A stretch of DNA of 64,000 nt from an uncultured Eubacteriales bacterium (GCA_964456985.1 CAYWDH010000010.1:850-64849); one strand, 5' to 3'. Shown: positions 30,232-57,773, counted from the first letter of the stretch. Made by a program: numbers and translations. The notes: generated by a model not told the origin, from the letters alone.

Positions 30232-30249
30232 GGGGACGAGCCCGGACCC
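30232..30249 (+). repeat. Isolated 5'-terminal fragment of the ~100-nt repeat family (GGGGACGAGCCCGGACCC)
   Basis: It matches the invariant 5' end of the family with two mismatches, and the similarity stops after ~18 nt. Confidence 0.3.
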
Positions 30250-30319
30250 AGAACTCTTCTTTTAAATTGACAATTCTATTATCAAATAGTATTTTTCTTA
30301 TAAGTAAAAGGAGGGAATA

Positions 30320-31660
30320 ATGAGATCGGGTAAAATATCTGTTTTATTTCTGTTTTTAATAGTCTTCTCAGTTCAGGCCCAGAACAAGAATCTAGATAAC
30401 CGCTGTCAAACTGTGGAATTGCCTGATCATAAGACATTTAAAGTAGATGCAAGAGAAATGAATCAAAAATATAATTCCAGATTCAAATCCCAGGACAGAG
30501 TCCAGATCATTCTTAAAAATATGAATCCGTTTCTTTTTGAATACAAGGTGACTATCAATGCAGTGCCGGTTCCGGAACCTGCATTAGAATATTTTTTCTC
30601 AATTTTGCCTGGGTTAGAAGAAATCGTGTCCGTTGAGGCAGCTGAAAACCGCGTCTTAATTAAAAAAGAGGATCTAGATGATTACAATAAAGCCATGGAG
30701 GAAGCTATTGAGCTGTATGAGAAGATAAGAAGTGAAATTAATAACGCGAACAAACTACTTAAAGATCATCAACATATTCTCCAATCAGAAAGGGCATCAT
30801 GTGCGGACCTGGTTGATACAGCACAAAATCTAAAAAAAGAAATGGAAGAAGGAATAAAAAAGATTGAAAAAATGGCAGATGACTTCAAATGTGCTATCTG
30901 TTCCATAGAGAAAAAAGTTGAGCCATATAAAGATAGTATAGACGTATCATTCAAAGACAAAATAAATGAGCTTAATCGTGGTTATAAACTAGTTGAAGAA
31001 AATATAAAAGACTACAAGAAAAGATTAAACTCCCTTAAAAAAACACTAGGGCGTCTTGAAAATTTCACTAAAAGCTACACCATCGGGCCTTATGGTGCGC
31101 CAACTGACGTAAAGGTCGAGATTGAACGAAAAAATCTCAAAATTAAAGGGGCGAAATTCGAGTCATTGATGACAGCAAAACTAAATTTCGGAGGAGGCCC
31201 GCGCTTCGCACTAGCCGCAGGTGTGGGTTTTTCATTCCTGGATAAAAGAACTTACATAAAAGCTTGGGGCTTTGAGCTTGATCGCAGTGGAAATCCTGTA
31301 GTACCGAGAAATGATACTGCGGTCGTTAGTAAGGGGGAAGACTCGAACAGTCGTTCTTTTATACTTTTAATGCTCCACACTCGGGTGTTTGATTTATTTG
31401 AGCAGGGAACCTTTCATATTTCTTTAGGGATTACAGGCAAAACAGAAGATGACAAAGTTGTAGAGTACATAGGAGGTGTTTCCCTGGGTCTTGCTGAAGA
31501 GCGGCTCTTTATGACTCTGGGCTTACACTACGGAAAACTTCAGGAGCTGGATAAACAGGTGTATATCGGCGCTCCTGTTCCGGAAGATGTGAATGATATT
31601 CCGGTAACGAATAAATGGGAATGTGCTCTTGCCTTTTCCCTGACCTACAAGATCAAATGA
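30320..31660 (+). CDS. Secreted hypothetical protein (coiled-coil N-half, beta-rich C-half)
   Basis: It has a strong RBS (AAAGGAGGG) and the signal peptide MRSGKISVLFLFLIVFSVQAQ. The C-terminal alternating-hydrophobic strands suggest an outer-membrane barrel. Confidence 0.6.
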   Translation: MRSGKISVLFLFLIVFSVQAQNKNLDNRCQTVELPDHKTFKVDAREMNQKYNSRFKSQDRVQIILKNMNPFLFEYKVTINAVPVPEPALEYFFSILPGLEEIVSVEAAENRVLIKKEDLDDYNKAMEEAIELYEKIRSEINNANKLLKDHQHILQSERASCADLVDTAQNLKKEMEEGIKKIEKMADDFKCAICSIEKKVEPYKDSIDVSFKDKINELNRGYKLVEENIKDYKKRLNSLKKTLGRLENFTKSYTIGPYGAPTDVKVEIERKNLKIKGAKFESLMTAKLNFGGGPRFALAAGVGFSFLDKRTYIKAWGFELDRSGNPVVPRNDTAVVSKGEDSNSRSFILLMLHTRVFDLFEQGTFHISLGITGKTEDDKVVEYIGGVSLGLAEERLFMTLGLHYGKLQELDKQVYIGAPVPEDVNDIPVTNKWECALAFSLTYKIK

Positions 31661-31713
31661 TACAAGCAGAACATAATCCTTTGTATTGATTAAGCATCGA
31701 TACTGATTTTTAT

Positions 31714-32148
31714 TTATTTTTGATCCTTTTTCTTTTTGATTGCTTCAGCAGCCCGATGTAAAAATTTACCAAAGTATTTAGGATTGTAGCTGACGATGAA
31801 GCTTACCACAGAGACAACGCTTGCCAGCCGTGCGTATTGTTCAGGAGTCTGCGGGGATATGGGCGGTGATTGTAAAACGATTATCATGCCGGAGATGATC
31901 AATAGGTACACTATAAATCCCCTGATAATTCCTGAAAGATAGGGATTAATGGGATCAACTGGAAATTCATCAGTTTCTTCCTGTTTGCTAATGACGTGTA
32001 ATGTGGCACAACGACCGAGCGCGCCAAGAAGGCCTGTGAGTATGCTTAATAGCGCTACGTTTGTTGGCGTGTATACCAGCAGAACAATGATCCAATTGAT
32101 GAAATCATTCAGGAATGTCGTATCAGGTGTTTTGGACGCTATCTTAGG
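31714..32148 (-). pseudogene. 5'-truncated duplicate of the membrane-protein gene at 33108-33686
   Basis: It is near-identical at the nucleotide level to 33127-33553. The frame is closed by a TAA just upstream and has no native start. The fragment ends exactly where repeat copy B begins. Confidence 0.65.
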
Positions 32149-32155
32149 TGTTTAA

Positions 32156-32258
32156 GGGGACGGGCCCGGACATCTTCAATCATATCAATAAGATAACCCC
32201 ATTTTTCCACAACCAGCCTCCCTGAAGTACTCCTATTTTTTAGCCCCTAAATCAGCAG
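32156..32258 (+). repeat. ~100-nt repeat family, copy B (most divergent 3' half)
   Basis: It reads GGGGACGGGCCCGGACATCTTCAATCATATCAATAAGATAACCCCATTTTTCCACAACC...AAATCAGCAG. Confidence 0.85.
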
Positions 32259-32312
32259 CTTAATGCGTAAGAGCTTAACTGACAGGTAATCATGTAAGAC
32301 GGCTTTGTTTAA

Positions 32313-32603: not shown

Positions 32604-32613
32604 TTTATCCTCC

Positions 32614-33107: not shown

Positions 33108-33686
33108 TTAATCAGGAGTATTACTTTGATCTTTTTTCTTTTTGATTGCTTCAGCAGCTCGATGTAAAAATTTACCAAAGTATTTAGGATTGTAGCTGAC
33201 GATGAAGCTTACCACAGAGACAACGCTTGCCAGCCGTGCGTATTGTTCAGGAGTCTGCGGGGATATGGGCGGTGATTGTAAAACGATTATCATGCCGGAG
33301 ATGATCAATAGGTACACTATAAATCCCCTGATAATTCCTGAAAGATAGGGATTAATGGGATCAACTGGAAATTCATCAGTTTCTTCCTGTTTGCTAATGA
33401 CGTGTAATGTGGCACAACGACCGAGCGCGCCAAGAAGGCCTGTGAGTATGCTTAATAGCGCTACGTTTGTTGGCGTGTATACCAGCAGAACAATGATCCA
33501 ATTGATGAAATCATTCAGGAATGTCGTATCAGGTGTTTTGGATGCTATTTTTGAGCGATAAGGAAACGAATTAACGATCGTTCCAGCTAAAAATATCAAT
33601 ATCCATAATACAATGGTGATAATAGTTAGAGTTTTTCCTAAGTTGCTAAGCCCGTTAGTTTTTAAAAGTTTCGTTTTATTTTGCAT
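33108..33686 (-). CDS. Four-TM membrane protein (intact copy)
   Basis: It has hydrophobic segments and a Lys-rich C-terminus. It is the parent of the truncated duplicate at 31714-32148. Confidence 0.65.
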   Translation of the reverse strand: MQNKTKLLKTNGLSNLGKTLTIITIVLWILIFLAGTIVNSFPYRSKIASKTPDTTFLNDFINWIIVLLVYTPTNVALLSILTGLLGALGRCATLHVISKQEETDEFPVDPINPYLSGIIRGFIVYLLIISGMIIVLQSPPISPQTPEQYARLASVVSVVSFIVSYNPKYFGKFLHRAAEAIKKKKDQSNTPD

Positions 33687-33709
33687 GTTATTAACCTCTT
33701 TCCTTCTTA

Positions 33710-34063: not shown

Positions 34064-35431
34064 TCATCCCTCATAGGCCGTTATTACCTTTTCTAATTCT
34101 TTATGAAATAATTTCCGAATCCACTGCATTCTCGCCTCGCAGTCATTAGGACGTAGAGCTGCTCCAGTTCTTTCGTAGGCACTTCCCATACAGCCGCTGC
34201 CGCAGAAATTCCTCCATGGACATTCTTGACATTCTTCGATTAGATTAGGACGATCAAAGCATTCCTGTTTGATGTTTCGGAGCTTTTGCCCGGCTACAAT
34301 TTCATCAAATTTAGAATTCCTCACATTGCCAAGACAATATTCCTGGCCACTATGAAAGCATTGGCAGGGGAAAACATTACCTGCTGGATCAACTCTTACC
34401 TGGGTTCCGATAGAACATCGTGTTTGGGCTCCTGATCGAGAGATGTTCATGGAAAAACAGTCAGCCAGAAGATCCATTTCTCCTTTCAGTTCCGAAGCTT
34501 TTTCAGAAACAATATCCCAGAAGCGAAGGATTTCCTCATTGGAAAGCTTCAATTCTTCCCAGTTGGATTTTGCTCTCCCAGATGGTGACAGAGGAGGAAA
34601 CTGAATGACCGGTATGCCGCGATCCAGGCCAAACTGAATGATATCTGGGGTTTCGTCTATATTAAGCTTGGACGGTGTGAAAGCAATCACGATATCTTTT
34701 CCCAAATCTTGAGAGAGCAAAAGATCAAGGCCTTTAACCGTTTGACTGAATGCCCCTTGTCCACGTAGCAAGTCATGAGTTTCGGGAGTAGCCCCATCCA
34801 AACTGATCTGGATTTTCAATTGATACTCTGCCAGTTTCTGGCTGATATCTTGGTTAATTAAAGTCCCATTTGTTCCAATAGAGACCATAAGCCCTTCAGC
34901 AATGGCAGAATCAATGATATTGAATAAATCATCCCTTAAAAGAGGCTCGCCTCCGCCAATGGATGTGGACTGCGCCCCTGCGTTCTTGGCTGCTCTAAAC
35001 AGGCTGCGGATCTCTTCAAGGCTGAGTTCATTAGGATGGGGATTTCCTGCTGAGAGATAGCAGTGTCTGCATCTCAAATTGCATTGTTTTGTTATCTCGA
35101 GCGCAAGACAGCTGAAGAGGTTATCTGGTTTTGTGTCCTTTGAAGTCTTGAGAAGGACCTTGTCATGCAAAAGACCTTCGAGAAATTCTTTAACAATTTT
35201 AGTCATATCTTTTTGAGAAATTCCGTTATTTCTTGAGATAAGTTGAGCAATATTTTTAACTGAATTCTGACCGTCGCATAGATTAAGAATGTCCATGCTG
35301 TCAGAATTGATAAAAGCCCAAGCAGGAACTTCAGTGTTTAGTACAAAATAGACGTGTTCATGGCCGCTATTCCATGTGAATTCTTCAAAATAGAGGTCAG
35401 TTGTGGAACGGGGAACATAAAAATCTTTCAT
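34064..35431 (-). CDS. Radical SAM/SPASM peptide-modifying enzyme with an N-terminal PqqD-like RRE
   Basis: The radical-SAM cluster is ITKQCNLRCRHCY. The SPASM region is CSIG...FPCQC...CQECPWRNFCGSGC. The N-terminal ILNLCDGQNSVKNIAQLI is PqqD/RRE-like. Confidence 0.9.
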   Translation of the reverse strand: MKDFYVPRSTTDLYFEEFTWNSGHEHVYFVLNTEVPAWAFINSDSMDILNLCDGQNSVKNIAQLISRNNGISQKDMTKIVKEFLEGLLHDKVLLKTSKDTKPDNLFSCLALEITKQCNLRCRHCYLSAGNPHPNELSLEEIRSLFRAAKNAGAQSTSIGGGEPLLRDDLFNIIDSAIAEGLMVSIGTNGTLINQDISQKLAEYQLKIQISLDGATPETHDLLRGQGAFSQTVKGLDLLLSQDLGKDIVIAFTPSKLNIDETPDIIQFGLDRGIPVIQFPPLSPSGRAKSNWEELKLSNEEILRFWDIVSEKASELKGEMDLLADCFSMNISRSGAQTRCSIGTQVRVDPAGNVFPCQCFHSGQEYCLGNVRNSKFDEIVAGQKLRNIKQECFDRPNLIEECQECPWRNFCGSGCMGSAYERTGAALRPNDCEARMQWIRKLFHKELEKVITAYEG

Positions 35432-35474: not shown

Positions 35475-36287
35475 TTAATACGAAAAGTTCCTTATTTTAT
35501 CAAGAGCTACGAGCAACTCAGGCGCAGGAATACCCACCCACCACCACCGATCGACGATAACTCCGGCTGTTGGTCCCCAAATCCCGTCGATAATTCCAGG
35601 GAAAGGTTGGATTGCCTTGAGAACATTGAGAGAGGGATGAGCAGGCAGAGGATTGCTGTCAGCTAAAATTTGGGGTCCAAAACCAAGGAGTTTTGATGTT
35701 TGTCTGGCTGTGCCCACTTTCTGTGCATAAATAGGAGTATCAAACACAATGGGAGTGAATACACAACCCTCGTCTTCTTTGAGTTTAATGTTGTGCCTCT
35801 CCATTAAACCAAACACTTTTTCGCTGAACTGAACCATAAGCTCTTTACTGCCAACCATACGTTTGATCAGCCCATAGCTGTCCATAACCGGGATAGGATC
35901 ATCATAGATCTTATCGTGAATCCTAAAGAAGCCCAACCTTTCCAGAAGCATAGGATTCATACCCCCGTGTTCCGGAAGGTGGAGGAAAACGTAGCTGTCC
36001 CACTTATCAGCGATGCTAGCGACTTCTCCCTCTATTATGATCCCTCCTGATATCCCTTTAGCCAGAAGAGATTGGAACAGGCTTTCCTGGGCTTTTACTT
36101 TTATATCTGGAAGTTCTTTTTGTGTGTAATTAAAAACCCTTGGCTCAAACACATAACTCTTGTCGGACAGATCAATTTTGTGTTCTTTTAGAAGCGTTTG
36201 AACGGTCTTGCTTAATTCCTGCATAAGGTCTGGGTTTGTGGAGATCGCTTTTTTTATTTCCATTGAACGATTAAAATTCCATCTCAT
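35475..36287 (-). CDS. Hypothetical protein with an internally duplicated leader-like motif and a Trp-rich C-terminus
   Basis: Two copies of one motif are present: DLMQELSKTVQTLLKEHKIDLSDKSYVFEPRVF and ELMVQFSEKVFGLMERHNIKLKEDEGCVFTPIVF. The C-terminus reads GIIDGIWGPTAGVIVDRWWWVGIPAPE. It lies directly upstream of the rSAM/SPASM gene. Confidence 0.6.
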   Translation of the reverse strand: MRWNFNRSMEIKKAISTNPDLMQELSKTVQTLLKEHKIDLSDKSYVFEPRVFNYTQKELPDIKVKAQESLFQSLLAKGISGGIIIEGEVASIADKWDSYVFLHLPEHGGMNPMLLERLGFFRIHDKIYDDPIPVMDSYGLIKRMVGSKELMVQFSEKVFGLMERHNIKLKEDEGCVFTPIVFDTPIYAQKVGTARQTSKLLGFGPQILADSNPLPAHPSLNVLKAIQPFPGIIDGIWGPTAGVIVDRWWWVGIPAPELLVALDKIRNFSY

Positions 36288-38785: not shown

Positions 38786-39163
38786 ATGCCAACACAAAAG
38801 AAAAAAATACTAGTTGTTTGCAGCGTTTACGAAAATCTAAAGATGCTGAGCTCAATTTTAGCCGGAGAGGGCAGAACCATTATAAAAGCCATGTCCAAAG
38901 AAAAAGCGCTTGAATCAGCCAGAAACGACTGTCCGGATATTGCAGTGATGGACTTTGACCTTTCGGATTTTGGGGGCGGCGATCTGGCTTCAGCAATAAG
39001 AGATATGCGGTCAGAGAATCCAATGCCTATTGTTTTTATCACTTCACTCATCAGCGAAGCAGAAGAAAGGTGCCGCATGATCGATGGACCCATATGCTTT
39101 CTGTCCAAACCACTGGATGTCAAAAGACTAAAGGAAGAAATAAACAGCCTCCTAAATCTTTAG
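38786..39163 (+). CDS. Stand-alone receiver (CheY-like) domain protein, atypical acidic pocket
   Basis: The phospho-acceptor context IAVMDFDL, the T/S (FITSL) and the K (LSKP) are present. The usual N-terminal DD pair is replaced by CS (ILVVCSVYEN). Confidence 0.75.
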   Translation: MPTQKKKILVVCSVYENLKMLSSILAGEGRTIIKAMSKEKALESARNDCPDIAVMDFDLSDFGGGDLASAIRDMRSENPMPIVFITSLISEAEERCRMIDGPICFLSKPLDVKRLKEEINSLLNL

Positions 39164-39266
39164 GGGGACGGGCCCGGATATCTTCAATCATATCAACAAC
39201 ATAACCCCACTTTTCCACAACCGCCTACCCTGGAGAGCTGCTGTTTTTGGGGGCAAAATCAACATC
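39164..39266 (+). repeat. ~100-nt repeat family, copy C
   Basis: It starts immediately after the TAG stop of the receiver gene. Confidence 0.9.
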
Positions 39267-40431: not shown

Positions 40432-42219
40432 ATGAAAAAGTCAGTCTTTTTTGTTTTGTTTATAGGGATTATCTTTGGTCTTTTAGCTGCTCAAACAGAA
40501 AAGAGCAAAGACATAGAGATCGAGATCATTCTTCACCAGATGATCGAGATGAAAGACGGTGTCCACATTGCTGCCAATATCTACAAACCAGCGCAAATGA
40601 GTAAGCCTCTTCCGGCAATTTTTGCCTTCACTCCTTATATTTCAGATGAGGGGCAGGAGAGGGGCACCTTTTTTGCTCAACACGGGTATGTGTATGTGCA
40701 CGCAGATGTGAGGGGCCGGGGAAACTCTGAGGGCGAATTCTATCCTTTGGAGAAAGATGGGATGGACGGAGCCCAGGTCGTAGAGTGGATCGCCCGACAG
40801 ACCTGGTGTGATGGCCGGGTTGGAATGAGAGGGGGCTCTTACAGAGGCATGGTGCAGTGGCAGACCTTGAAGCATTTCCCTCCGGCGCTCAAGACCATTG
40901 TTCCTACGGCTGCGGCTGCTCCGGGAGTGGATTTTCCCATGTCCAATAATGTGTTTACCTCCTACGTCACCCAGTGGCTTGCTTTTGTGAAAGGGGAGAC
41001 CGGGAATGTGAACCTCTTTTCTGACCAGAAATTCTGGATGAGCAAGTTCTATAAGATGTACAGCGAACACATTCCTTTTGCCCGGCTGGCAGAGCTGACG
41101 GGCAGCAATGAGAAGATTTTCGAGCGCTGGATATCCCATCCTTATTTCGACAAACTTTGGAAAGACACCGCGTTCCCGGATAAAGACTATGAAAAGATCG
41201 ATATTCCGATCCTGACCATAACCGGACACTTTGACGGCGACCAGCCGGGAGCTCTGCATTACTTCCATCATCATATGGAGTATGGATCACAGGAGGCAAG
41301 GGAGAAACATTACTTATTGGTCGGACCATGGGACCACCCAGGCACACGGCATCCTCAAAAAGAACTGGGGGGATTGACATTTGGTGACAATGCTGTTTTG
41401 GATATGGAAAAACTCCATCTTGAGTGGTATGACTGGGTCTTTAAAGGCAAAGAGAGACCCGGGCTTCTGAAAAAGAGGATCTGCTATTATGTGATGAATG
41501 AAAATGTGTGGAAATACGCGGAGAGTCTGGATGACATATCAAATAAAACGCAGGAGTGGTATCTTTCATCTGAGGGAGGTGAAGCCGGAGACGTGTTTCA
41601 TTCGGGAAAACTCGTGCCGGATGCGCCTCAAGGGATGCAAAAGCCGGATACCTTTGAGTATGATCCCCTAAAGATAATGACCAAAGACGAATATTTCAAG
41701 AGCCGCACCGAGGCTTATTTCCTGGACCAGAGAGCGGCTTTTAGCGAGGATAAACTCATCTATCACAGTGCTCCACTTGAAGAGGCGCTGGAAGTGGCTG
41801 GATATGTGAAGGTCAGGCTTTTTATAGAACTTAATGTGCCGGATACGGATCTGGCTGTGGCGCTTTATGAGATAAGGCCTGACGGACAGAGCATCTATTT
41901 GGCCGAGGATTTTATACGGGCTCGCTTTCGTGAGTCGCTTTCCAGGGCTGAGCTCATCAAACCAGGGGAGATCAATGAATATGTGTTTGAGAGGGCATAC
42001 TTTTTTGCTCGTAAGCTGGAGAAGGGAAGCCGGCTGCGGCTTGTCGTGTCCTGTTTGAATTCACCTGATATCGAGAAGAATTACAATTCCGGAGGAGTGG
42101 TGGCAGAGGAGACAGCCGAAGATGCGCGGACAGCGGTCATAAAGCTCTATCATGACAAGGATCACCCCAGCCTCATTATCTTTGGGGACGGGCCCGGGCA
42201 TCTTAAATCATATCAATAA
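40432..42219 (+). CDS. CocE/NonD-family (peptidase S15-like) hydrolase
   Basis: It has a signal peptide, the GGSYRG nucleophile elbow and a family-typical N-terminus (DGV.IAANIYKP). The last ~12 codons are supplied by repeat copy D. Confidence 0.85.
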   Translation: MKKSVFFVLFIGIIFGLLAAQTEKSKDIEIEIILHQMIEMKDGVHIAANIYKPAQMSKPLPAIFAFTPYISDEGQERGTFFAQHGYVYVHADVRGRGNSEGEFYPLEKDGMDGAQVVEWIARQTWCDGRVGMRGGSYRGMVQWQTLKHFPPALKTIVPTAAAAPGVDFPMSNNVFTSYVTQWLAFVKGETGNVNLFSDQKFWMSKFYKMYSEHIPFARLAELTGSNEKIFERWISHPYFDKLWKDTAFPDKDYEKIDIPILTITGHFDGDQPGALHYFHHHMEYGSQEAREKHYLLVGPWDHPGTRHPQKELGGLTFGDNAVLDMEKLHLEWYDWVFKGKERPGLLKKRICYYVMNENVWKYAESLDDISNKTQEWYLSSEGGEAGDVFHSGKLVPDAPQGMQKPDTFEYDPLKIMTKDEYFKSRTEAYFLDQRAAFSEDKLIYHSAPLEEALEVAGYVKVRLFIELNVPDTDLAVALYEIRPDGQSIYLAEDFIRARFRESLSRAELIKPGEINEYVFERAYFFARKLEKGSRLRLVVSCLNSPDIEKNYNSGGVVAEETAEDARTAVIKLYHDKDHPSLIIFGDGPGHLKSYQ

Positions 42220-42283
42220 CTTAACCCTACTTTTCCACAACTCCCTACCCTGGAGAGCCGCCGTTTTTAGGGGCAAAAACGGT
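42184..42283 (+). repeat. ~100-nt repeat family, copy D
   Basis: It overlaps the 3' end of the hydrolase ORF and provides the GDGPGHLKSYQ tail and the stop codon. Confidence 0.9.
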
Positions 42284-42309
42284 TTGATCTTTTGCCCTAT
42301 TTCGGGGAG

Positions 42310-43403: not shown

Positions 43404-43504
43404 GGGGACGGGCCCGGGCATCTCCAATCATATCAATAACATAACCCTACTTTTCCACAGCCCCCCACCCTGGAGAGTCGTCGTTTTTAGGGGCAAAATC
43501 ATCG
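43404..43504 (+). repeat. ~100-nt repeat family, copy E
   Basis: It lies in the divergent intergenic region between 43363 (-) and 43581 (+). Confidence 0.9.
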
Positions 43505-43580
43505 TTTTAATGAACTTCTCTGGATCAAGTTTCGTATCTTTTATAAAGCCGACTTTTTAACTCAAAAGGAGATATTGAAG

Positions 43581-45528: not shown

Positions 45529-45631
45529 GGGGGACGGGCCCGGGCATCTGCAATCATATCAACAACATAACCCTACTTTTCCACAACCCTCTACCCTGAA
45601 GAGCCCCCATTTTTGGGGGCCAAATCAGCAG
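45529..45631 (+). repeat. ~100-nt repeat family, copy F
   Basis: It lies in the divergent intergenic region and contains the hairpin GCCCCC-ATTTTT-GGGGGC. Confidence 0.9.
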
Positions 45632-45783
45632 TTTATAGATCTTCAGTTTCTTCCAGAGATTTGACCGGCGAATAAAATCCTCTTTCTATCATTTTCGTCT
45701 GACTTGACAGGAAATACTTGTTTTTTTATATTGTTGGTATCAAAAATAAAGGGGATATAAATAAAGCAAAAAGGATAAAAACT

Positions 45784-47022: not shown

Positions 47023-47123
47023 GGGGACGGGCCCGGCTATCTTCAATCATATCAATAACATAACCCTACTTTTCCACAACCCTCCACCCTGAAGGGCCGT
47101 CGTTTTTGGGCCCAAAAATCACA
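47022..47123 (+). repeat. ~100-nt repeat family, copy G
   Basis: It starts immediately after the TAG stop of 45784-47022. Confidence 0.9.
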
Positions 47124-47210
47124 AATTCAACAACCACAATCAAATCAGCACCAGTGCCTTTAAGACTTTCACCTTGTTATATGGAAAAAAAGTGATAGAA
47201 TGTTCTGTAT

Positions 47211-49711: not shown

Positions 49712-49789
49712 AGCTTGGGCTTCAGGGCTCAAAAGGCCAAATACGAAATACGGTATAAATAAAAATGGAAGAAGAAAGATCTTCGTCAA

Positions 49790-52700
49790 ATGATTTCCAA
49801 AACGATTGAATTCTCTCTCAGGCACCGCTTGTTCGTGGTCCTGGCCACTGTGGCGTTGGCTCTTTTGGGATATTTCGCCTTTCAAAGGCTTCCTATAGAC
49901 GTGTTTCCTGATCCTTCTCCCCCATTGGTTCAAATATATACGGAAGCCCCGGGAATGGCCCCAGAGGAAGTGGAAAGGCTGATATCCTACCCTGTGGAAT
50001 CCTCAATGTTCGGGCTTCCTAAAATAGATAAGATACGGTCGACCTCCTCCTTTGCACTTTCCATTGTCAATGTCTATTTTGCAGAGAAAACAGATATATA
50101 CTGGGCCCGCCAGCTGGTATCCCAGCGCCTGAACGAGATCCGGGATATCATCCCGGAACAGGCCCATAATCCGGTTTTAGGACCCATATCAACGGGGCTG
50201 GGGCTGGTCTATCTTTATTATTTAGAGAGTGAAAATCACTCCACTATGGAGCTCCGCACTATACAGGACTGGCTTATCAAATATGAGCTAAAATCTGTGC
50301 CGGAAGTTTCTCAGGTCCTGAGTATCGGAGGGGATGTCAAGGAGTTTAAAATTTTGATCAATCCCCAGTCACTTCTGAAATACAATCTCACGATTTCCGA
50401 TATCATCGCTAAGGTCAAACAGAACAACCAGAATATCGGAGCCGGCTTTATCACGAGGGGAAAAGAAGAATATATCGTAAGGAGTGTCGGGCTTGCCAGG
50501 ACCATTGAGGACCTGGAAAATATCGTTGTTGCAAACTACGAGGGCATTCCGGTCTTTCTCCGGGATATGGCCCAGGTCAAAGTTCTCCCGGCTGTTAAAA
50601 GGGGAGCCGCTCTTGCCAACGGAGAGGGCGAGAAAGTTGTGGGAATGGTGCTCAAATTGTTTGGCTCAAACACAGCCAGGGTCATCCAGAACTTAGAGGA
50701 GAGAATTTCAGAAATAAACAAGGTGCTGCCTGAGGGAGTGAAGATCGTCCCGTTCTACAACCAGGCATCCCTTGTAAAAAAATGCTTTTCCACTGTTTCG
50801 CTGAATCTTGTGGTCGGAATTGTTCTTGTGATCATTGTTCTTTTCCTTTTTATGGGAGATTTCCCGTCCGCGCTCATAGCTGTTTTTTCCCTTCCTTTTT
50901 CTATTCTTCTTTCATTCATCTTGATGAACCGGATCGGTCTTTCTGCAGACTTGATGTCCTTTGGGGGACTGGCCATTGCCATTGGTCTTATTGCGGATGC
51001 GGCCATAATCATGGTGGAGAACATCCACCGGCATGTGCAGTTTGGGGATCAAGATAAGTTCACCGCTGTTGTATCTGCAGGAGAGGAAGTGGGCCGGCCG
51101 CTCTTTTTTGCCATTGCCATTATCATCCTCGTCTTTCTTCCTATATTCACCTTAACCGGGGTCGAGGGGATCATGTTCCGTCCAATGGGATACACCATTT
51201 CCTTTGCCATAGCCGGTTCGCTGCTTTTTGCTGTGATTTCTGTCCCTGCTCTCTCCTTTTATCTGCTGAGGAAGAGAAAAAGATCCGTAGAACACTCCTT
51301 TTTGATGAAGCACATTAAAAGAGCCTATTCTCCCTTCTTCTCTTATTGCCAGCGACATAAGAAAACGGTTTTTATCAGCACGGCCTTTGTTTTTTTGATA
51401 GGGATGGTCATAGTCCCTTTTTTAGGGAGGGAATATATGCCGCGCCTTGAAGAAGGGACGCTTCACCTCCGTGCTTCCTTTGACCCGAATATAAGTTTGA
51501 ATGAGACCATTTCCATCACCTCAGGGATTGAAAAAACAATCAAGCAGCTGCCTGAAGTGACGGGGGTTTTAAGCCGGATAGGAAGAGGGGAGGTAGGAAG
51601 CCATGCTCATTTTGTGAACAATGCTGAGATCCTGATCAAGCTCAAACCCATACAAAAGTGGACCCATTTCAGAGATAAGGACGAACTCATTGATGAGCTG
51701 GAGCACAGCCTGGAAAAATTCCCGGGAATGAACCTTAATATCACGCAGCCCATTGCTCATAATCTGGATGAGCTGATAACCGGGGTTAAGGCACAGCTGG
51801 CTGTCAAACTCTACGGGGAGGATTTCGATGTGCTTAGAGAAAAATCCTCTGAGATCAAAGAAGCCCTTGGCTCGGTGAGAGGCGCGGCTGACCTCCAGAT
51901 CGAACAGTTCGTCGGACAGAATTATATCCAGATACAGCTCCATAGGGAAAAAATAGCCCGGTATGGTTTGAACATCCGGGAAATCCAGCAGACCATTGAG
52001 GCTGCGGTGGGGGGGATAACCTTGGGGCAGGTGTACGATCAGCAAAGGAGGTTTAATATCTTCCTCCGCTTTGCTCCTGAATTCAGGGCCAACATGGAGC
52101 ATATCCAGAATTTGCTCATCCGGCTTCCTGAAAAAGGATACATCCCCCTTGCTCAAATAGCATCTATTGAAGAAACAGAAGGCCCCCGTTTGGTCAACAG
52201 GGAAGGAAACAGGAGATACATCACCATACAGTGCAATGTGAGGGGAAGAGATATGGGAAGCTTTGTGGATGAAGCGCAAAAGACCATTCAGGAGGAAGTG
52301 AATCTCCCGGCGGGATATATGGTGAAATGGGGCGGCCAGTTTCAGCTCCAGCAGGAAGCTAATAAAAGATTTTTGGTGATCATTCCGATCACGCTGGCTG
52401 TGGTGGCTCTTCTTCTGTTTTCTATATTCTATTCGTTTAAGGAAGTGCTTATCATACTCATCAATATTCCTCTGGCTCTTACAGGAGGGATCATTGCTTT
52501 GAAGATTTCAGGGCTATATTTGAGCGTGCCGGCCTTCATAGGGTTCATTGCCATTTTCGGGATCGCTCTGGAGGACGGTCTTGTTCTTATGTCCTCTTTC
52601 CATAAACATCTGAAGCAGGGCTTGGATTTGGAGCGTGCGGTTTTAGAGGGGGTCCATATCAAACTGAGGCCTGTTCTCATGACTTCCTTTACCACAATAT

Positions 52701-52876
52701 TTGGAGTGATGCCGTTGCTTTTATCCAGAGGGCCCGGAGCTGAGATCCAGAGGCCTCTGGCCGCAGTGGTGGTGGGAGGCCTCATCACATCAACGCTTGT
52801 CACCTTGGTCGTCCTCCCCCTCATCTTCCAAAAATTAAGGGGGGACGGGCCCGGGCATCTCCAATCATATCAATAA
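49790..52876 (+). CDS. czcA: Heavy-metal-efflux (HME) RND pump, CzcA/CusA family
   Basis: It is 1028 aa with 12-TM RND topology and family blocks (FPDPSPPLVQIYTEAPG, DAAIIMVENI). The last ~12 codons come from repeat copy H. Confidence 0.93.
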   Translation: MISKTIEFSLRHRLFVVLATVALALLGYFAFQRLPIDVFPDPSPPLVQIYTEAPGMAPEEVERLISYPVESSMFGLPKIDKIRSTSSFALSIVNVYFAEKTDIYWARQLVSQRLNEIRDIIPEQAHNPVLGPISTGLGLVYLYYLESENHSTMELRTIQDWLIKYELKSVPEVSQVLSIGGDVKEFKILINPQSLLKYNLTISDIIAKVKQNNQNIGAGFITRGKEEYIVRSVGLARTIEDLENIVVANYEGIPVFLRDMAQVKVLPAVKRGAALANGEGEKVVGMVLKLFGSNTARVIQNLEERISEINKVLPEGVKIVPFYNQASLVKKCFSTVSLNLVVGIVLVIIVLFLFMGDFPSALIAVFSLPFSILLSFILMNRIGLSADLMSFGGLAIAIGLIADAAIIMVENIHRHVQFGDQDKFTAVVSAGEEVGRPLFFAIAIIILVFLPIFTLTGVEGIMFRPMGYTISFAIAGSLLFAVISVPALSFYLLRKRKRSVEHSFLMKHIKRAYSPFFSYCQRHKKTVFISTAFVFLIGMVIVPFLGREYMPRLEEGTLHLRASFDPNISLNETISITSGIEKTIKQLPEVTGVLSRIGRGEVGSHAHFVNNAEILIKLKPIQKWTHFRDKDELIDELEHSLEKFPGMNLNITQPIAHNLDELITGVKAQLAVKLYGEDFDVLREKSSEIKEALGSVRGAADLQIEQFVGQNYIQIQLHREKIARYGLNIREIQQTIEAAVGGITLGQVYDQQRRFNIFLRFAPEFRANMEHIQNLLIRLPEKGYIPLAQIASIEETEGPRLVNREGNRRYITIQCNVRGRDMGSFVDEAQKTIQEEVNLPAGYMVKWGGQFQLQQEANKRFLVIIPITLAVVALLLFSIFYSFKEVLIILINIPLALTGGIIALKISGLYLSVPAFIGFIAIFGIALEDGLVLMSSFHKHLKQGLDLERAVLEGVHIKLRPVLMTSFTTIFGVMPLLLSRGPGAEIQRPLAAVVVGGLITSTLVTLVVLPLIFQKLRGDGPGHLQSYQ

Positions 52877-52937
52877 CTTACATTACTTTTCCACAATCGC
52901 CTACCCTGGAAGGATGTCATTTTTGGGGGCAAAAAAG
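52839..52937 (+). repeat. ~100-nt repeat family, copy H
   Basis: It overlaps the 3' end of the RND pump ORF and provides the GDGPGHLQSYQ tail and the stop. Confidence 0.9.
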
Positions 52938-53139
52938 AGCATATGGAACCCAATCAAATTTTATTAAGAGATGTAGCCGAAGATTAAAATCATGTCATCC
53001 TTGGCGCATTTTCCTTTATATAGGCGTATCCTGTTCTTTAGTTCTATGGAATTTTCAATGGAAAACAAAGAGAGCAACGATTCCTCCTTCCTGAAGGTTT
53101 AATTTAAAAAGAGTGAATATTAGTAAGGGAGGAAAACAA

Positions 53140-53673: not shown

Positions 53674-53753
53674 ACGTAGAGACATATTATCTGGGATTAG
53701 GTTCTAGATAGCCGGGCTTCTATATGTCCGGTTGGGATAAAATGCAAAGTAGT

Positions 53754-53850
53754 GATTTTTACCCCCAAAAAACAGAGCTTCTCTGGGTAAGGGAATGTGG
53801 AAAAGTAAAGTAAGTTATTGATATAAAAGAATATCCCCGGGCCCGTCCCC
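53754..53850 (-). repeat. ~100-nt repeat family, copy I (the only inverted copy)
   Basis: Its reverse complement reads GGGGACGGGCCCGGGGATATTC...CTTTTCCACATTC...TTTTTTGGGGGTAAAAATC. Confidence 0.85.
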
Positions 53851-53912: not shown

Positions 53913-55931
53913 ATGAAAACCAAACGCCCCCTTCAATGCCCTTTGTTTGCTGCTTGTTTATTGATTTTTTTCCTTTTTTGCTCCCACTCCTCACGCCCCT
54001 TGTTCTCCGACTCTTTCCCTGCTCCTGCTCCCGCGCCTCAAGAAAAGAGCCTGACCATCATCCACACCAATGACCTCCACTCACATCTCCTGGGCCACTC
54101 CCCGAACACAGACTACTCGCCAGACATACTTAATGACGATGACACCTTAGGCGGTTGGGCCCGTATCGCCGTCGCTATACAAAGAGAAAAGGCAGCCCGG
54201 GAAAATCCGGTTCTTGTGCTGGATGCAGGCGATTTTCTTATGGGAACTCTTTTTCATATGATAAGCCGGGAAGAGGCCGTCGAGCTTGTGCTGATGAAAG
54301 AGATGGGCTTTGACCTCACCACCCTGGGAAACCACGAGTTTGATTTAAAACCCGCCGGATTATCCCGTATCCTGCGAGCGGCTGCATCAAAGGGTGGAAT
54401 GCCCCAGATCATTGCGTCGAACATGATCTTTGATCCTGTCGAAGAGGCAGATGACACCCTGGAGCAGGATTTCAATCAGGGACTTATCAAACCGTATGTG
54501 GTCTTAAAGAGGAGTGGGATCCGGATCGGGGTCTACGGACTACTCGGAGCTGATGCCACTGAGACAGCGCCTTTTGCATGGCCTGTGACATTCCGCGATA
54601 TCATTGAAACATCAGAGGAGATGGTGCAAACACTCCGGGAGAAGGAAGGGGTCGATCTTGTGATCTGCCTTTCCCATTCCGGGATTTGGGATGATAAGAA
54701 AAAGTCCGAAGACGAAATTCTGGCGAAAAAGGTCCCGGGCATAGACATCATCATAAGCGGACACACCCATACAAAACTCACAGAGCCGATCTTTCACAAC
54801 AACACCATCATTGTCCAGGCCGGAGACTACGGACGAAATGTTGGGGTTCTGGATTTTGCGGTCAATGAGGACCGCACGATTGTGTTTAAGGATTACCGTC
54901 TTTTAGAGATAAATGACTCGATCAAAGGAGACGAGCGGCTCACAAAGCTCATTGAGTCAGAAAAAGAGATGGTGGAGAACGAGGTGCTTAAGGACCGCCA
55001 CCTGAAGTTCTATCAGCCTCTGGCAGAAACAGATTTTGACCTTTGCCTGGAGGATGAGGAGACCGGACTGGGGAACCTGGTCACAGATGCCATACGCTGG
55101 GCCGTAAACAGGCGTGTTTACGAACCGGACCGCCCCTTATCAAAAGTAAGAGTCGCGCTTCAGTCTAACGGCCTTATCCGGAGCGATATTGTGAAAGGAA
55201 AGACCGGAGTGGTGGGCGTTTCAGACCTTTTCCGGGTGGAACCCCTGGGAATTGGTCTGGATGGCACAATGGGTTATCCGCTCCTTACCTTTTATCTTTA
55301 CGCTTCTGAGATCAAAAAGGCCATGGAAGTCGCTACATCCATTTATCCTATAAAAGGGAGTGATTATTTTCTCCAGTTTTCAGGGATCAAGGTGACTTAT
55401 AATCCAAAGCGCGTGATATTTGACAGGGTCACAGATATATGGATCGAAGGGAAAGACGGCACGTATAAGCCGTTGGATTATTCCCCTTCCAACAAAGAGC
55501 TTTACAGAGTGGCCTCCAATTATTTCAATTCTTCTTTTATCAAATTTGTGGGAAGTTATACAAAAAACATCCTGAAGATCGTACCCAAGGACGCAGAAGG
55601 AAATCCCATCCAGGACCTCGCAAATGCAAGAGTGGATGCTGACCCGGATACACCCGGGATACAGGAGCTTAAAGAATGGGAGACCTTGTTTAAATACATG
55701 GGGACTTTTGAGGACAGGGACGGAGACGGGCTCAATGAAATTTCCGAAAGATACAGCCTTACAGAGGGCCGTTTTGTTTCATCCCCGAGTCTCAATCCGA
55801 TAAAGCTGCTCAAACGCGGAAATTTTCTCACATGGCTTGCGTTTTGTGCATTTGTTTTAGGACTCGGTATTTTTTCCCTGCTGATCTATATTGTAGTAAA
55901 AAAAATAAGGGGACGGGCCCGGGCATCTTAA
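53913..55931 (+). CDS. Bifunctional metallophosphatase/5'-nucleotidase (UshA-like) with a C-terminal TM anchor
   Basis: It has the motifs IIHTNDLHSHL, DAGDF, GNHEFD and ISGHTH. The final RGRARAS codons and the stop come from repeat copy J. Confidence 0.85.
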   Translation: MKTKRPLQCPLFAACLLIFFLFCSHSSRPLFSDSFPAPAPAPQEKSLTIIHTNDLHSHLLGHSPNTDYSPDILNDDDTLGGWARIAVAIQREKAARENPVLVLDAGDFLMGTLFHMISREEAVELVLMKEMGFDLTTLGNHEFDLKPAGLSRILRAAASKGGMPQIIASNMIFDPVEEADDTLEQDFNQGLIKPYVVLKRSGIRIGVYGLLGADATETAPFAWPVTFRDIIETSEEMVQTLREKEGVDLVICLSHSGIWDDKKKSEDEILAKKVPGIDIIISGHTHTKLTEPIFHNNTIIVQAGDYGRNVGVLDFAVNEDRTIVFKDYRLLEINDSIKGDERLTKLIESEKEMVENEVLKDRHLKFYQPLAETDFDLCLEDEETGLGNLVTDAIRWAVNRRVYEPDRPLSKVRVALQSNGLIRSDIVKGKTGVVGVSDLFRVEPLGIGLDGTMGYPLLTFYLYASEIKKAMEVATSIYPIKGSDYFLQFSGIKVTYNPKRVIFDRVTDIWIEGKDGTYKPLDYSPSNKELYRVASNYFNSSFIKFVGSYTKNILKIVPKDAEGNPIQDLANARVDADPDTPGIQELKEWETLFKYMGTFEDRDGDGLNEISERYSLTEGRFVSSPSLNPIKLLKRGNFLTWLAFCAFVLGLGIFSLLIYIVVKKIRGRARAS

Positions 55932-56011
55932 ATATTATCAATAGCTTAACCCTACTTTTCCACAACCCCCTACCCTGGAGCATCGCCATTTTTGGGGGCA
56001 AAAATCAGCAG
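55909..56011 (+). repeat. ~100-nt repeat family, copy J
   Basis: It overlaps the 3' end of the nucleotidase ORF. Confidence 0.9.
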
Positions 56012-56102
56012 TTGCAGACTCCTATTTTCAAAGATTATGATGCCCCTGATTTCCTACTTGACAGGGCACCTTATCCTGTAATAGTTTTATAGAGAAGAGC
56101 CC

Positions 56103-57692
56103 ATGGATTTTATCTTTGATTCCTGCAGCCGAAGAGACTTTATTAAAATGTCTTCCACAGTTGGACTTGCAGGCCTTCTCTCTAGCTGCGGTCTGTTCCG
56201 CTCACTTCCCAATAAACCAAATGTTCTGTTTGTGATTGTGGATGATTTGAGGCCGGAGCTGGGATGTTACGGCAACCCGGAGATCAAGACTCCTCATTTC
56301 GACCGGTTTTCCACTGAGTCTGTTCTTTTTTCAAGAGCCTACTGCCAGGCAGCTGCCTGTGCCCCTTCGAGAGCCTGTGTTATGACAGGAAAACGGCCGG
56401 ACACCACTCGGGTCTGGAGTCTGGGAGATAAATTTCGTGAGCTCAATCCCGCGATTGTGACTATGCCCCAGCATTTTCACAAATTCGGTTATCATACGGT
56501 TTCCATGGGAAAGATCTTCCATAACCACATGCCGGACCCTGTGTCCTTTGATGAACCGGACCTCAGGCCCCCTGCCTTCAACACACCTGAGCTCAGGGAC
56601 CGAGATCCTGAGTCTTTTTATCATGATGAAGAGCTCAAAAGAGAGCTTGCAGAAGTCAGAAAACAGAGGCTGGCTGAAAATCCCAATGCCTATGCGGGAG
56701 GATGGGCTTACGGACAGTCTACAGAATGCTATGATGGCCCGGACAGCGAGTTCTATGATGGCGCCCAGACTGATCTGGCTCTTAATAAGTTAAAAGAGCT
56801 CAAAGGGAGGGAGGAGCCCTTTTATCTTGCTGTGGGGTATTACCGGCCTCATCTGCCTTTTGTGTCCCCTAAAAAGTATTGGGACCTCTACGACCGGCAG
56901 AAACTTTCTCTGGCTCCAAATCCGTTTCTTCCCAAAAATGCTCCGCTTTATGCTATGAATTCCGCCTATGAATTGACCGGATGTTATGACCTGGAGTGGG
57001 TCAAGCATCCATCGGTTGAGAAACTGCCTGAAGATACGGCGCGGCGTCTCAAACACGGATACTATGCCAGTGTGAGTTTTGTGGATGCCTGTTTTGGGAG
57101 GTTGATGGATGGATTGAAGCGCCTTGGACTTGATAAGAACACCGTGGTTGTGGTTTGGGGCGATCACGGCTGGAAATTAGGGGAACATGGAAGCTGGTGC
57201 AAGCAGACAAACTACAATATAGACACGCGGGTTCCTCTTTTTATAAAGGTCCCCGGATATAAAGCCATGGGCCGAGCTAGTGACAGTCTGGTGGAGCTGG
57301 TGGATCTTTACCCCACTCTATGTGATCTGGCTGGGATAAGCGTGCCGGATGATATGGAGGGGATCAGTCTGAAGCCCGTGCTTAAAAATCCGGAGGCTGA
57401 AGTCAAGTCAGCGGTGTTCAGCCAGTATCATCAGCGGCCTAAGGTCACGCCGGATGGGGGCCGGTACATGGGATACTCCATGGTCACGAGCCGCTATCAT
57501 TATGTGGAATGGTACACCTGGGACAATCAGCGCAAAGAGCGTGGGCAAAAAGTGGGAGTTGAGCTCTACGACAACCAAAACGATCCTCAGGAAAATCTCA
57601 ACATTGCGGATGAGCCCCGAAATCAGGCATTGGTGCAGAGTCTTTCTGAGCAGCTTAGAAACGGTTGGGGGGACGGGCCCGGGCATCTTTAA
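56103..57692 (+). CDS. Formylglycine-type sulfatase (iduronate-2-sulfatase-like) with a TAT signal
   Basis: It has the twin-arginine motif SRRDFIK, the active-site CAPSRA (C-x-P-x-R) and VVWGDHGW. The final GDGPGHL codons and the stop come from repeat copy K. Confidence 0.9.
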   Translation: MDFIFDSCSRRDFIKMSSTVGLAGLLSSCGLFRSLPNKPNVLFVIVDDLRPELGCYGNPEIKTPHFDRFSTESVLFSRAYCQAAACAPSRACVMTGKRPDTTRVWSLGDKFRELNPAIVTMPQHFHKFGYHTVSMGKIFHNHMPDPVSFDEPDLRPPAFNTPELRDRDPESFYHDEELKRELAEVRKQRLAENPNAYAGGWAYGQSTECYDGPDSEFYDGAQTDLALNKLKELKGREEPFYLAVGYYRPHLPFVSPKKYWDLYDRQKLSLAPNPFLPKNAPLYAMNSAYELTGCYDLEWVKHPSVEKLPEDTARRLKHGYYASVSFVDACFGRLMDGLKRLGLDKNTVVVVWGDHGWKLGEHGSWCKQTNYNIDTRVPLFIKVPGYKAMGRASDSLVELVDLYPTLCDLAGISVPDDMEGISLKPVLKNPEAEVKSAVFSQYHQRPKVTPDGGRYMGYSMVTSRYHYVEWYTWDNQRKERGQKVGVELYDNQNDPQENLNIADEPRNQALVQSLSEQLRNGWGDGPGHL

Positions 57693-57770
57693 TCATATCA
57701 ATAACATATCCAACTTTTCCACAGATCGCTACCCTGAAGCACCGCCATTTTTGGGGGGTAAAATCAGCCG
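57667..57770 (+). repeat. ~100-nt repeat family, copy K
   Basis: It lies between the convergent sulfatase and SDR genes and ends 3 nt before the SDR stop codon. Confidence 0.9.
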
Positions 57771-57773
57771 TTT

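Follow-up and report, generated by a model that had tools for sequence, protein, structure and literature searches.

A lineage-restricted, strand-asymmetric DNA repeat at gene ends of uncultured Aminicenantes: a candidate protein-recognised recombination site

Introduction

Why does one short, non-coding sequence recur, nearly always in the same orientation, at the ends of genes along a single bacterial contig? This question is raised by a 64,000-nucleotide (nt) stretch of DNA deposited under the name of an uncultured Eubacteriales bacterium (GCA_964456985.1, CAYWDH010000010.1:850-64849; the whole 64-kb stretch is called the window below), which carries ten copies of a repeat of approx. 100 nt, here referred to as the element. 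A first-pass annotation, made from the sequence alone, had described an oriented, gene-end-associated and hitherto undescribed family and had proposed that it might be a mobile element, a structured RNA of 3' untranslated regions (3'-UTRs) or an array of protein-binding sites. The description holds. The RNA proposal finds no support, whereas the mobile element and the protein-binding site are both still viable in modified form, the copies being old, diverged and conserved in blocks. To our knowledge, interspersed intergenic repeats have been described in only a few cultured phyla, and almost every such family is palindromic or has inverted ends. Among such repeats the present family is new: it belongs to uncultured Aminicenantes, is dense, asymmetric and conserved block by block, and is tied to strain-level changes in gene order and to remodelling of protein C-termini. 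The reading that we prefer, tentatively and at somewhat less than an even chance, is that the element is a protein-recognised, one-ended recombination or mobility site in a niche like that of REP/BIME repeats. If a partner protein exists, it would be a new sequence-specific DNA enzyme or binding factor and would provide a handle on genome rearrangement in Aminicenantes.

An oriented repeat family with five conserved blocks

The sequence GGGGACGGGCCCGG (the 14-mer), with up to two mismatches allowed, occurs at 11 sites in the window, compared with 0.09 expected from shuffled sequences. Repeat finding and alignment resolve these into ten full copies of approx. 100 nt and one 18-nt 5' fragment, and a hidden Markov model (HMM) built from the ten copies recovers exactly those ten in the 64 kb, each approx. 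103-105 nt long (Table 1). Thus, the copy number and the fragment reported in the first-pass annotation are borne out, as are the common direction of nine of the ten copies and, by the HMM, their absence from the first 30 kb, the last 6 kb and the A/T-rich island. Its coordinates agree with ours within 2 nt, although four of the starts (45529, 47022, 52839 and 57667) were 1-2 nt off. In the native part of the window the element occurs approx. once per 2.8 kb, and about half of the transcription units in this stretch of the genome have it at their ends.

In an alignment of 85 copies, five conserved blocks are separated by freely varying spacers (block positions and motifs are given in Table 1). 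Positions 28-40, which resemble the IHF consensus WATCARNNNNTTR, are a predicted site; at the fixed position 28, this consensus is matched exactly in 23 of the 85 copies and in a relaxed form in 52. There are at least two subfamilies, which differ throughout positions 15-47. The window copies are pairwise 64-88% identical, and yet the 14-mer and TTTTCCACA are the same in all ten, as had been claimed for the 5' end; these invariant runs of 14 and 9 columns stand among columns that average 1.7 minority bases. If the variable columns of the window set were placed randomly, such runs would arise with P ~1e-5. The combination of this identity range with an invariant 14-mer and 9-mer indicates that the copies are old and that the blocks have been kept by selection or gene conversion. 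It should be noted that the pattern scans demanded an exact 14-mer, so that conservation outside the window is biased, whereas the window set is unbiased.

Several other identities for the conserved sequence were considered and rejected. Restriction-site avoidance does not apply, since GGGCCC and CCCGGG occur at normal frequency outside the element. A variable-repeat target of a diversity-generating retroelement is rejected because the sequences upstream of the copies are unrelated to one another. A minus-strand G-quadruplex is excluded by G-tracts that vary across subfamilies, and the sigma-54 architecture (enhancer, IHF site, -24/-12) by the lack, judged by eye, of the GG/GC elements in the second subfamily.

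Restriction to a narrow lineage

When one genome per species was scanned for the pattern, the element turned up in no more than three metagenome-assembled genomes, two of which are labelled 'uncultured Eubacteriales' while the third is Candidatus Aminicenantes AUK173; a metagenome scan contributed 67 further loci. The material compared comprises 79 sequences with 122 HMM hits, 110 of them full, which come down to 91 different copies with flanks and 85 different bodies. It consists mostly of short-read metagenome assemblies, several loci overlap the same contigs, and gene calls in the related loci are simple longest-ORF (open reading frame) picks. Beyond the window, the scans raise the number of distinct copies by about 80, every one of them from a narrow lineage of Aminicenantes, and protein homologues assign the window itself to Aminicenantes. 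Strains in which the RND pump is 95% identical to that of the window carry the element. In contrast, no copy is present in the 19-kb syntenic loci of relatives in which the pump is 84-87% identical, where short convergent gene ends stand in its place, and none at one locus with a 69% identical peptidase. The presence of copies in the former and their absence from the 84-87% relatives indicate that the family is confined to a narrow lineage. No match was found among viral contigs, plasmids and phages, and the literature searched holds nothing relevant on the sequence or on any Aminicenantes repeat family. Several public contigs begin or end inside the element (L002 at its start, L005 at its end, L050, L029, L048, L070 and the Logan contig L082), which indicates that the repeat breaks short-read assemblies of this lineage.

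Absence of RNA structure, terminator and promoter

The idea of a structured non-coding RNA or riboswitch-like 3'-UTR family is effectively refuted. Only the conserved sequence and the intergenic location speak for it. However, Rfam gives no hit at gathering threshold over the 64 kb and no permissive hit (E<=10) overlapping any copy, in agreement with the earlier statement that no known Rfam-type RNA is involved. For 85 plus-strand and 51 minus-strand copies RNAalifold returns no consensus helix, covariation or compensatory pairs; it finds just three invariant pairs, a 3-bp GGG/CCC stem, and the ten window copies likewise give no fold. Single plus strands fold worse than their shuffles (z +0.2 to +1.9 in three copies), and the minus strand is unremarkable.

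Intrinsic terminators occur at chance level in the region (24 found, 21 expected). A terminator scan flags two of the ten copies, through weak A/U or short stems that differ between them (42260-42283 and 53785-53773). The element itself is rejected as an intrinsic terminator on account of this regional total and because its T run precedes and its A run follows the G+C core, which is the wrong order. It is also rejected as the promoter of the downstream gene, since co-directional next genes keep their own TTGACA-N16-18-TATAAT between element and start codon; in 45 of 82 cases the gene that follows is convergent.

A further possibility is an outward promoter on the minus strand (TGGAAA-N17/18-TATGAT with an extended -10 TG), which would drive a divergent gene or an antisense RNA into the 3' end upstream. 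A consensus scan flags the copies at 52841, 55909 and 57669, and in three window copies a gene starts 40-62 nt beyond the tip. Nonetheless, we regard this as very improbable: the spacer is 19 nt in most copies, outside the scan range, the -10-like hexamer varies across subfamilies, and the tip points towards a gene end, not a gene start, in two thirds of cases.

Position relative to genes

In the window, seven upstream co-directional ORFs, rather than the six counted earlier, end at or inside a copy. Three abut it exactly (ends 32155, 39163 and 47022), while four enter it by 22-36 nt (ends 42219, 52876, 55931 and 57692); TAA or TAG directly precedes six copies, as had been reported. The accompanying proposal that any incoming frame is closed quickly is correct for frames 1 and 3, which meet a stop by nt 36-41, but not for frame 2, in which the first stop, CCC TGA as read from the consensus, lies at approx. 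nt 70 and is missing in TGG variants. As frame 2 stays open for approx. 70 nt and, of 51 co-directional ORFs upstream, only 8 run on into the element, frame closing finds no support as its purpose. A small ORF or C-terminal tag is likewise rejected on the basis of the 8 of 51 and of a reading frame that differs between subfamilies.

Among the 91 copies, classified on crude ORF calls, 21 lie between convergent and 6 between divergent genes, although the two kinds of region are equal in number in any genome; in co-directional gene pairs, 25 copies have the orientation of the genes and 15 the opposite one. It follows that gene 3' ends are favoured and that the strand of the element has only a weak link to transcription. 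Adjacent copies strongly tend to point the same way (9 to 1 in the window, 4 to 0 in both L059 and L068, 3 to 0 in L003) despite a gene ratio of 13 plus to 11 minus in the element-bearing stretch of the window. The efflux operon at 47211-52876 is bracketed by copies and has none within. Set against local GC skew, copy orientation splits 57 to 29, a ratio confounded by gene strand and redundant loci. At one locus a single copy lies between co-directional tRNA-Leu(taa) and tRNA-Glu(ctc) genes (L007 5142-5882, L011 3927-4622, L016 2815-3559), the T-rich spacer from tRNA-Leu to the tip being 11, 53 and 33 nt long, respectively; since this concerns one locus only, a general linkage to tRNA genes is rejected.

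The location after genes raises the possibility of an unstructured element that acts at the RNA level, i.e., a portable rut-like site or a 3'-UTR protein platform for which the plus-strand transcript matters. Columns 15-80 of the plus strand contain 8.8% G vs. 28.9% C, the plus strand folds worse than shuffles, and the tip follows a co-directional gene in 51 cases vs. 25, standing directly after stops, where Rho could load. However, rut sites need neither an invariant 14-mer nor a 9-mer, the 25:15 orientation in co-directional pairs is a weak bias, all four copies of the L059 array are antisense to the genes that they follow, and the element is also found between tRNA genes. Such a role appears distinctly unlikely.

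The tip as a fragile junction

The contact with stop codons had been taken for docking with a function of its own. Comparison with relatives does not bear this out and instead reveals a junction that is hypervariable and prone to recombination and that often cuts into the upstream gene at its 3' end. The S15 peptidase of the window now ends in ...HPSLIIFGDGPGHLKSYQ (IIFGDGPGHLKSYQ), and its 84% homologue in ...HPSLIELPVHK; the sulfatase ends in ...NGWGDGPGHL, and its L068 counterpart in ...AGWQGAIKKQ; the RND pump ends in ...QKLRGDGPGHLQSYQ, and that of the 95%-identical strains in ...QKIKYKK (in each case directly before the stop). The element thereby yields artificial-looking C-terminal tails (GDGPGH...) in predicted proteins. 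In L068, 4.5 kb with three more copies separates the intact sulfatase end from the orthologous copy. At the RND junction the window has a deletion of approx. 35 nt relative to the 95%-identical strains, two independent assemblies (L084 and L070) share a tandem duplication of approx. 16-17 nt of flank, possibly with the first G of the element, and L083 carries a further duplication of approx. 18 nt that comprises flank and the first 13 nt of the element.

These events are not confined to single loci. Tandem duplications span the tip in 7 of 72 copies, compared with 8 of 288 control positions; most units are 13-15 nt long and consist of 7-9 nt of flank plus GGGGA(C/G), while two measure 8-9 nt. 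In 12 of 72 copies vs. 10 of 288 controls, the 40 nt upstream contain a second GGGGAC-like motif. Wherever the flanks are further apart in relatives (by 36 nt to 4.5 kb), the extra DNA is on the tip side, at about eight loci and never on the opposite side. In the window, the right edge of the 31720-32145 duplicate lies approx. 10 nt from the tip of copy 32156, and its source gene is 1.4 kb away; the native breakpoint sequence reads, in a tip-like manner, TAAGGAAACGA against TAAGGGGACGG in the element. On sequence comparison, the invariant GC-rich tip marks a spot where adjoining DNA is repeatedly lost, duplicated or swapped.

Two observations concern the same region. The segments 31720-32145 and 33126-33551 are direct duplicates of approx. 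420 nt, the former truncated and the latter inside an intact 192-amino-acid gene of no known function. A/T-rich minisatellites directly upstream of the tip are seen in L014 (9700-9833, about eight GATATATAA-like units) and L035 (2290-2327, four GTAATAT units), and the units of both seem to derive from the sequence of the junction.

Turnover and recombination between copies

Presence/absence polymorphism at orthologous loci, suggested in the first-pass annotation as a check on mobility, was found in the form of one clean, true empty site in L042, where L024 and the window (copy 45530) are filled. This site places the 3' boundary of the element just past the CAAAA block, at approx. position 96. 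At a site filled in L008 and L022, L057 retains the first 22 nt only, and the deletion appears to have run between GGGAA microhomologies. The single copy in L010 is a chimera of the two copies that flank a PadR-permease module in relatives (L047 and L072). The RND flank is common to the window and L083, as is the element up to nt 38; past nt 38 they are approx. 70% identical by eye, and beyond the element there is no homology. Taken together, the two comparisons reveal chimeric copies and a deletion between two copies. Across all copy pairs, the upstream flank alone is shared in 10, the downstream flank alone in 18 and both in 7. Orthologous copies in L021 and L035 have flanks that are 88-95% identical and bodies that are 52-64% identical, i.e., as unlike as random pairs, an example of orthologous copies being swapped for other subfamilies. 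If exchange takes place within the near-identical first ~40 nt, both the reshuffling of modules and the apparent attachment of the body to its 3' flank would be accounted for.

In the window (42310-43363, minus strand), an MNT-type nucleotidyltransferase gene and an adjoining small gene lie between two copies; in the 95%-related strain L083 (5816-6617), what comes after the RND pump is an unrelated HepT/MNT pair, which likewise has a copy on either side.

Arrays of this kind might be taken for integron-like cassette recombination sites, with the crossover at the GGGG tip and a dedicated recombinase encoded elsewhere. The arrays are co-oriented, the gene content between copies differs among relatives, joints to tip-like pseudo-sites occur, and a weakly conserved A/T-rich heptamer adjoins the tip. 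However, the inverted core sites and the hairpin that define attC are lacking. The 'cassettes' would measure 1-7 kb and comprise several genes on both strands with their own promoters, as well as tRNA genes and an efflux operon of housekeeping type. No integrase is present among the ORFs scanned in the 64-kb window and approx. 0.5 Mb of related loci, and no dedicated enzyme is needed to explain the shuffling, for which exchange in the near-identical first 40 nt suffices. This explanation is therefore considered quite improbable.

A proposed one-ended, protein-recognised site

Direct observation provides the basis of the preferred reading, a one-ended recombination or mobility site: the family and its blocks, the missing RNA fold, the position at gene ends, the narrow lineage, the variable junctions, the truncations and the chimeras. 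In the mechanism that we propose, the strand-asymmetric, lineage-restricted repeat of approx. 96-105 bp would be a composite protein-recognition site acting at the level of DNA. Its recognition parts would be the invariant GC-rich 14-mer tip, an IHF-like bend site approx. 15 nt further in and then the inner blocks; by analogy, the palindromic tip, the IHF-type site at a fixed position and the inner blocks resemble a transposon end or the arm of an attachment site rather than an RNA or a promoter. The element would occupy A/T-rich DNA at transcription-unit ends, and its GGGG tip would be the active end, at which breakage, stalling or strand transfer might take place. Events at the tip could give rise to adjacent deletions, to duplications of 13-30 nt with their right edge at element positions 6-13, and to joints with tip-like pseudo-sites. 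They would explain why the tip often touches or truncates the upstream gene and, if only events in the last few codons or beyond survive selection, why the element seems to dock on stop codons. Recombination between copies, too, would take place in their near-identical first ~40 nt and would reshuffle the gene modules that lie between them. Most likely, the element arose as the cis-acting end used by a one-ended system that lacks terminal inverted repeats and has an enzyme that would be encoded elsewhere in the genome, with a logic akin to REP/RAYT, IS200/IS605, IS91 or one-ended Tn3 transposition; the copies may since have been retained as genomic punctuation. Binding by a protein, the type of enzyme and the mode of spread, by transposition or by recombination, are inferences. 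Confinement to one lineage, empty and remnant sites and the exchange of one subfamily for another would all fit enzyme-driven spread together with recombination between copies.

A number of points weigh against this proposal. The copies are old, none are near-identical and there is no sign of recent bursts; that such old copies keep their blocks invariant is more in line with selection at host level than with a purely selfish element. A search for a transposase, integrase or other recombinase in the window and approx. 0.5 Mb of related loci, in which 487 locus ORFs were clustered all against all and part of the ORFs were scanned with Pfam and NCBIfam, brought none to light. The neighbours that do recur are PadR and MacB/FtsX permease paralogues, sulfatases, NHL proteins and toxin-antitoxin genes. 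Only a single clean empty site was recovered. The window copies alone show, post hoc, a weak sign of a decayed target duplication of 8 bp at +101 to +103 (p ~0.01), which across all copies is absent (p 0.15); if real, it would argue for ordinary two-ended insertion. Joins made at repeats in short-read assemblies can be chimeric; the longest exact stretch common to copies is approx. 40 nt, shorter than typical reads. Finally, the IHF, Tn3 and stalling arguments rest on general knowledge and on inference.

Host-level selection is the core of the foremost alternative, namely, a host-encoded polar protein roadblock or insulator, in which a protein bound to the 14-mer would halt RNA polymerase or replication forks arriving from the tip side and instability would be a by-product. 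The invariance of the blocks in old, diverged copies is explained better in this way than by a one-ended mobility site. The copies stand at transcription-unit ends and upstream of the next promoter, and intrinsic terminators are in almost no excess in the region. The flank before the tip (-7 to -1) is almost C-free, mostly T or A, and such a tract just upstream of the tip would aid release. The right edges of the duplications at positions 6-13 are as expected of synthesis stalling on entry, and neighbouring copies are co-oriented even though the genes are not. However, the 84-87% relatives live without the element, which thus meets no general requirement, and this a roadblock explains worse than a mobility site does. 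Moreover, 15 of the 40 copies in co-directional pairs face the wrong way for stopping the upstream gene, and a repeat family in turnover is suggested by the empty vs. filled site, the remnants and the replacement of one subfamily by another. A roadblock is therefore held to be possible but doubtful.

It is also conceivable, although rather unlikely, that the element is the cis-site of an undescribed DNA-transaction system, either a one-ended recombinase or nickase that moves or exchanges multi-gene modules by means of the 14-mer tip, as a cassette system lacking hairpin sites, or a dense array of polar barriers to replication or transcription. The invariant blocks, co-oriented arrays, strictly tip-sided insertions and deletions, pseudo-site joints and 13-30-nt duplications are compatible with either version.

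Comparison with known systems

By niche, the closest analogues are REP/BIME repeats, including the forms that bear IHF sites, and by behaviour the Neisseria dRS3/NIME repeats, while the end architecture loosely recalls the ends of the Tn3 family and of one-ended elements without terminal inverted repeats. However, the element lacks the features that define REP, miniature transposable elements with inverted repeats (MITEs), attC, Tn3 ends and IS200/IS605 derivatives.

Like REP/BIME, especially of the RIB/RIP type, the element is very abundant and extragenic, is concentrated where transcription units have their 3' ends, is confined to one lineage and contains an IHF-type consensus; both are substrates for rearrangement and are probably spread by an enzyme encoded elsewhere, which for REP is RAYT. 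REPs are imperfect, hairpin-forming palindromes of approx. 35 nt that start with GTAG, whereas the element is approx. 100 bp long, hairpin-free and asymmetric, with one invariant GC-rich tip. No REP-type stem-loop palindrome of approx. 35 nt is present in the 85 plus-strand and 51 minus-strand copies, and no RAYT (TnpA_REP)-type gene was found in the 64 kb and approx. 0.5 Mb of related loci, among the part of the ORFs scanned.

MITEs (Correia/NEMIS, ERIC, RUP, Nezha) share with the element that they are short, non-coding, dispersed and multi-copy, that they insert in gene ends, where they supply stops, and that filled and empty sites exist. They are defined by terminal inverted repeats and target-site duplications, and the element has neither. 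The reverse complement of its 3' end is unlike the 14-mer tip, the only inverted arms being those of T5-N6-A5, and exact and mismatch-tolerant tests for target-site duplication over 89 copies gave values equal to those of permuted controls. In this respect, and in finding no linked transposase, the first-pass annotation was right. In addition, MITE copies are recent and uniform, whereas those of the element are old and conserved in blocks.

Co-oriented arrays of approx. 100-bp sites between genes, with variable content and joints to pseudo-sites, are common to attC/CALIN and the element. However, attC has inverted R''/L''-L'/R' cores and a folded bottom strand, and the element has neither; the units between elements are long and multi-gene and contain promoters. 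No RYYYAAC/GTTRRRY hairpin exists in the element, in which long-range complementarity is lacking and the middle of the plus strand is almost free of G, nor was an IntI integrase found among the ORFs scanned in the window or related loci. With the Neisseria dRS3/NIME repeats and 'minimal mobile elements', the element shares intergenic arrays at sites of gene-module exchange that are hotspots of rearrangement, but dRS3 is unlike it in sequence and architecture, being an inverted repeat of 20 bp on either side of repeat units and the target of a phage-borne IS110-like recombinase.

Ends of Tn3, IS200/IS605 and IS91/ISCR elements resemble the element in the GGGG outer tip, the adjoining IHF-type site and the A/T-rich targets, and one-ended systems without terminal inverted repeats in that one end is fixed while the adjoining DNA varies, in the absence of such repeats and in orientation polarity. 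The Tn3-family end is a 38-bp repeat with outer GGGG and inner TAAG that occurs as an inverted pair and is used with a 5-bp duplication by a DDE transposase. In the element there is no inverted partner, no 5-bp duplication and, among the ORFs scanned, no transposase; TAAG is present at positions 34-37 in some copies only, column 37 being of low information. Furthermore, Tn3 shows immunity, whereas ten copies of the element lie within 27 kb. For IS200/IS605 (PATE), subterminal hairpins at both ends serve the Y1 transposase, whereas the tip of the element has only the 3-bp GGG/CCC stem; what the two have in common is limited to orientation polarity and to the lack of terminal inverted repeats and of a target duplication.

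Features of the window and its neighbourhood

All coordinates are collected in Table 1. The inverted partial fragment listed there lies 77 nt after its matching arm, 55921-55944, within copy 55909.

Table 1. Conserved blocks of the element (in element positions) and coordinates of its copies, fragments and associated features in the window
Feature	Coordinates	Strand	Remarks
Block 1	element positions 1-14		GGGGACGGGCCCGG, containing the 8-bp palindrome CGGGCCCG
Block 2	element positions 28-40		TATCAA-N4-WTA, IHF-like (also written WATCAA-N4-WTA)
Block 3	element positions 48-56		TTTTCCACA
Block 4	element positions 65-71		CCCTGRA
Block 5	element positions ~81-96		TTTTTG-N4-CAAAA (T5-N6-A5 inverted repeat)
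14-mer sites (starts)	30232, 32156, 39164, 42184, 43404, 45530, 47023, 52841, 55909, 57669	+	30232 has one mismatch (fragment)
14-mer site (start)	53850	-	
Copy	32156..32260	+	68-aa ORF frame upstream ends at 32155; 420-nt recent duplicate at 5' junction; downstream genes convergent
Copy	39164..39266	+	directly after TAG of response-regulator gene 38786-39163; convergent gene 16 nt downstream
Copy	42184..42287	+	takes the place of the last 6 native codons of S15 peptidase gene 40432-42219
Copy	43404..43508	+	divergent intergenic region; GGGG tip 40 nt from start of nucleotidyltransferase gene 42710-43363 (-)
Copy	45530..45634	+	divergent region; site filled in L024, empty in L042
Copy	47023..47127	+	directly after TAG of 434-aa Kre9/KNH-domain gene; upstream of the RND operon's own promoter TTGTTA-N16-TAGAAT
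Copy	52841..52944	+	takes the place of the last 4 native codons of RND pump gene 49790-52876; junction unlike that of 95%-identical strains
Copy	53747..53850	-	sole copy of opposite orientation; GGGG tip 62 nt from 5'-nucleotidase start; 840 nt extra at tip in relative L065
Copy	55909..56013	+	overlaps end of 5'-nucleotidase gene 53913-55931; upstream of the sulfatase gene's own TTGACA promoter at 56058
Copy	57669..57772	+	takes the place of the last 7 native codons of sulfatase gene 56103-57692
Solo 5' tip fragment	30232..30249	+	GGGGACGAGCCCGGAC...; remnant of the same kind as L057:9788-9845
Inverted partial fragment	56022..56045	-	~71% complementary to element positions 13-36; without 14-mer tip
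Duplicate segment	31720..32145	.	99.5% identical to 33126-33551, part of 192-aa gene 33108-33686 (-)

Other features of the window are listed for orientation. The A/T-rich island at 3908-29068 (26-35% GC in places) contains genes for defence and DNA processing and is free of the repeat; according to Pfam, the 4.8-29 kb stretch is a defence and horizontally acquired island. Its genes encode an HNH nuclease, a DprA-like protein, an Eco57I/MmeI-type methylase of 1091 amino acids, an SNF2/ResIII helicase, Mrr, a ClpP-like SDH protease, B12-radical SAM enzymes, a UvrD-PD-(D/E)XK protein and GmrSD fused to a Schlafen AlbA_2 domain.

At 58890-63470, as well as in L001, L012, L072 and other loci, there are modules of PadR, HAAS/sensor and MacB-FtsX permease genes with many diverged paralogues. 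Such PadR/MacB-FtsX modules form 19 ortholog groups in the loci read, and in the window they give rise to the paralogous repeats 59314/60214, 60097/61003 and 62003/63170. One PadR-MacB-FtsX module is the unit gained or lost between two copies of the element in L072 vs. L010.

A radical SAM/SPASM enzyme is encoded at 34064-35431 (minus strand) beside small genes without a family match (35475-36287 and 33108-33686), and these genes may form a peptide-modification cluster. Finally, within the element-rich stretch, the plus-strand gene at 36519-38306 encodes a 595-amino-acid protein without a Pfam match; its NCBIfam matches are all sub-threshold, the best being a faint one to the TP0183-family 'DNA metabolism protein'.

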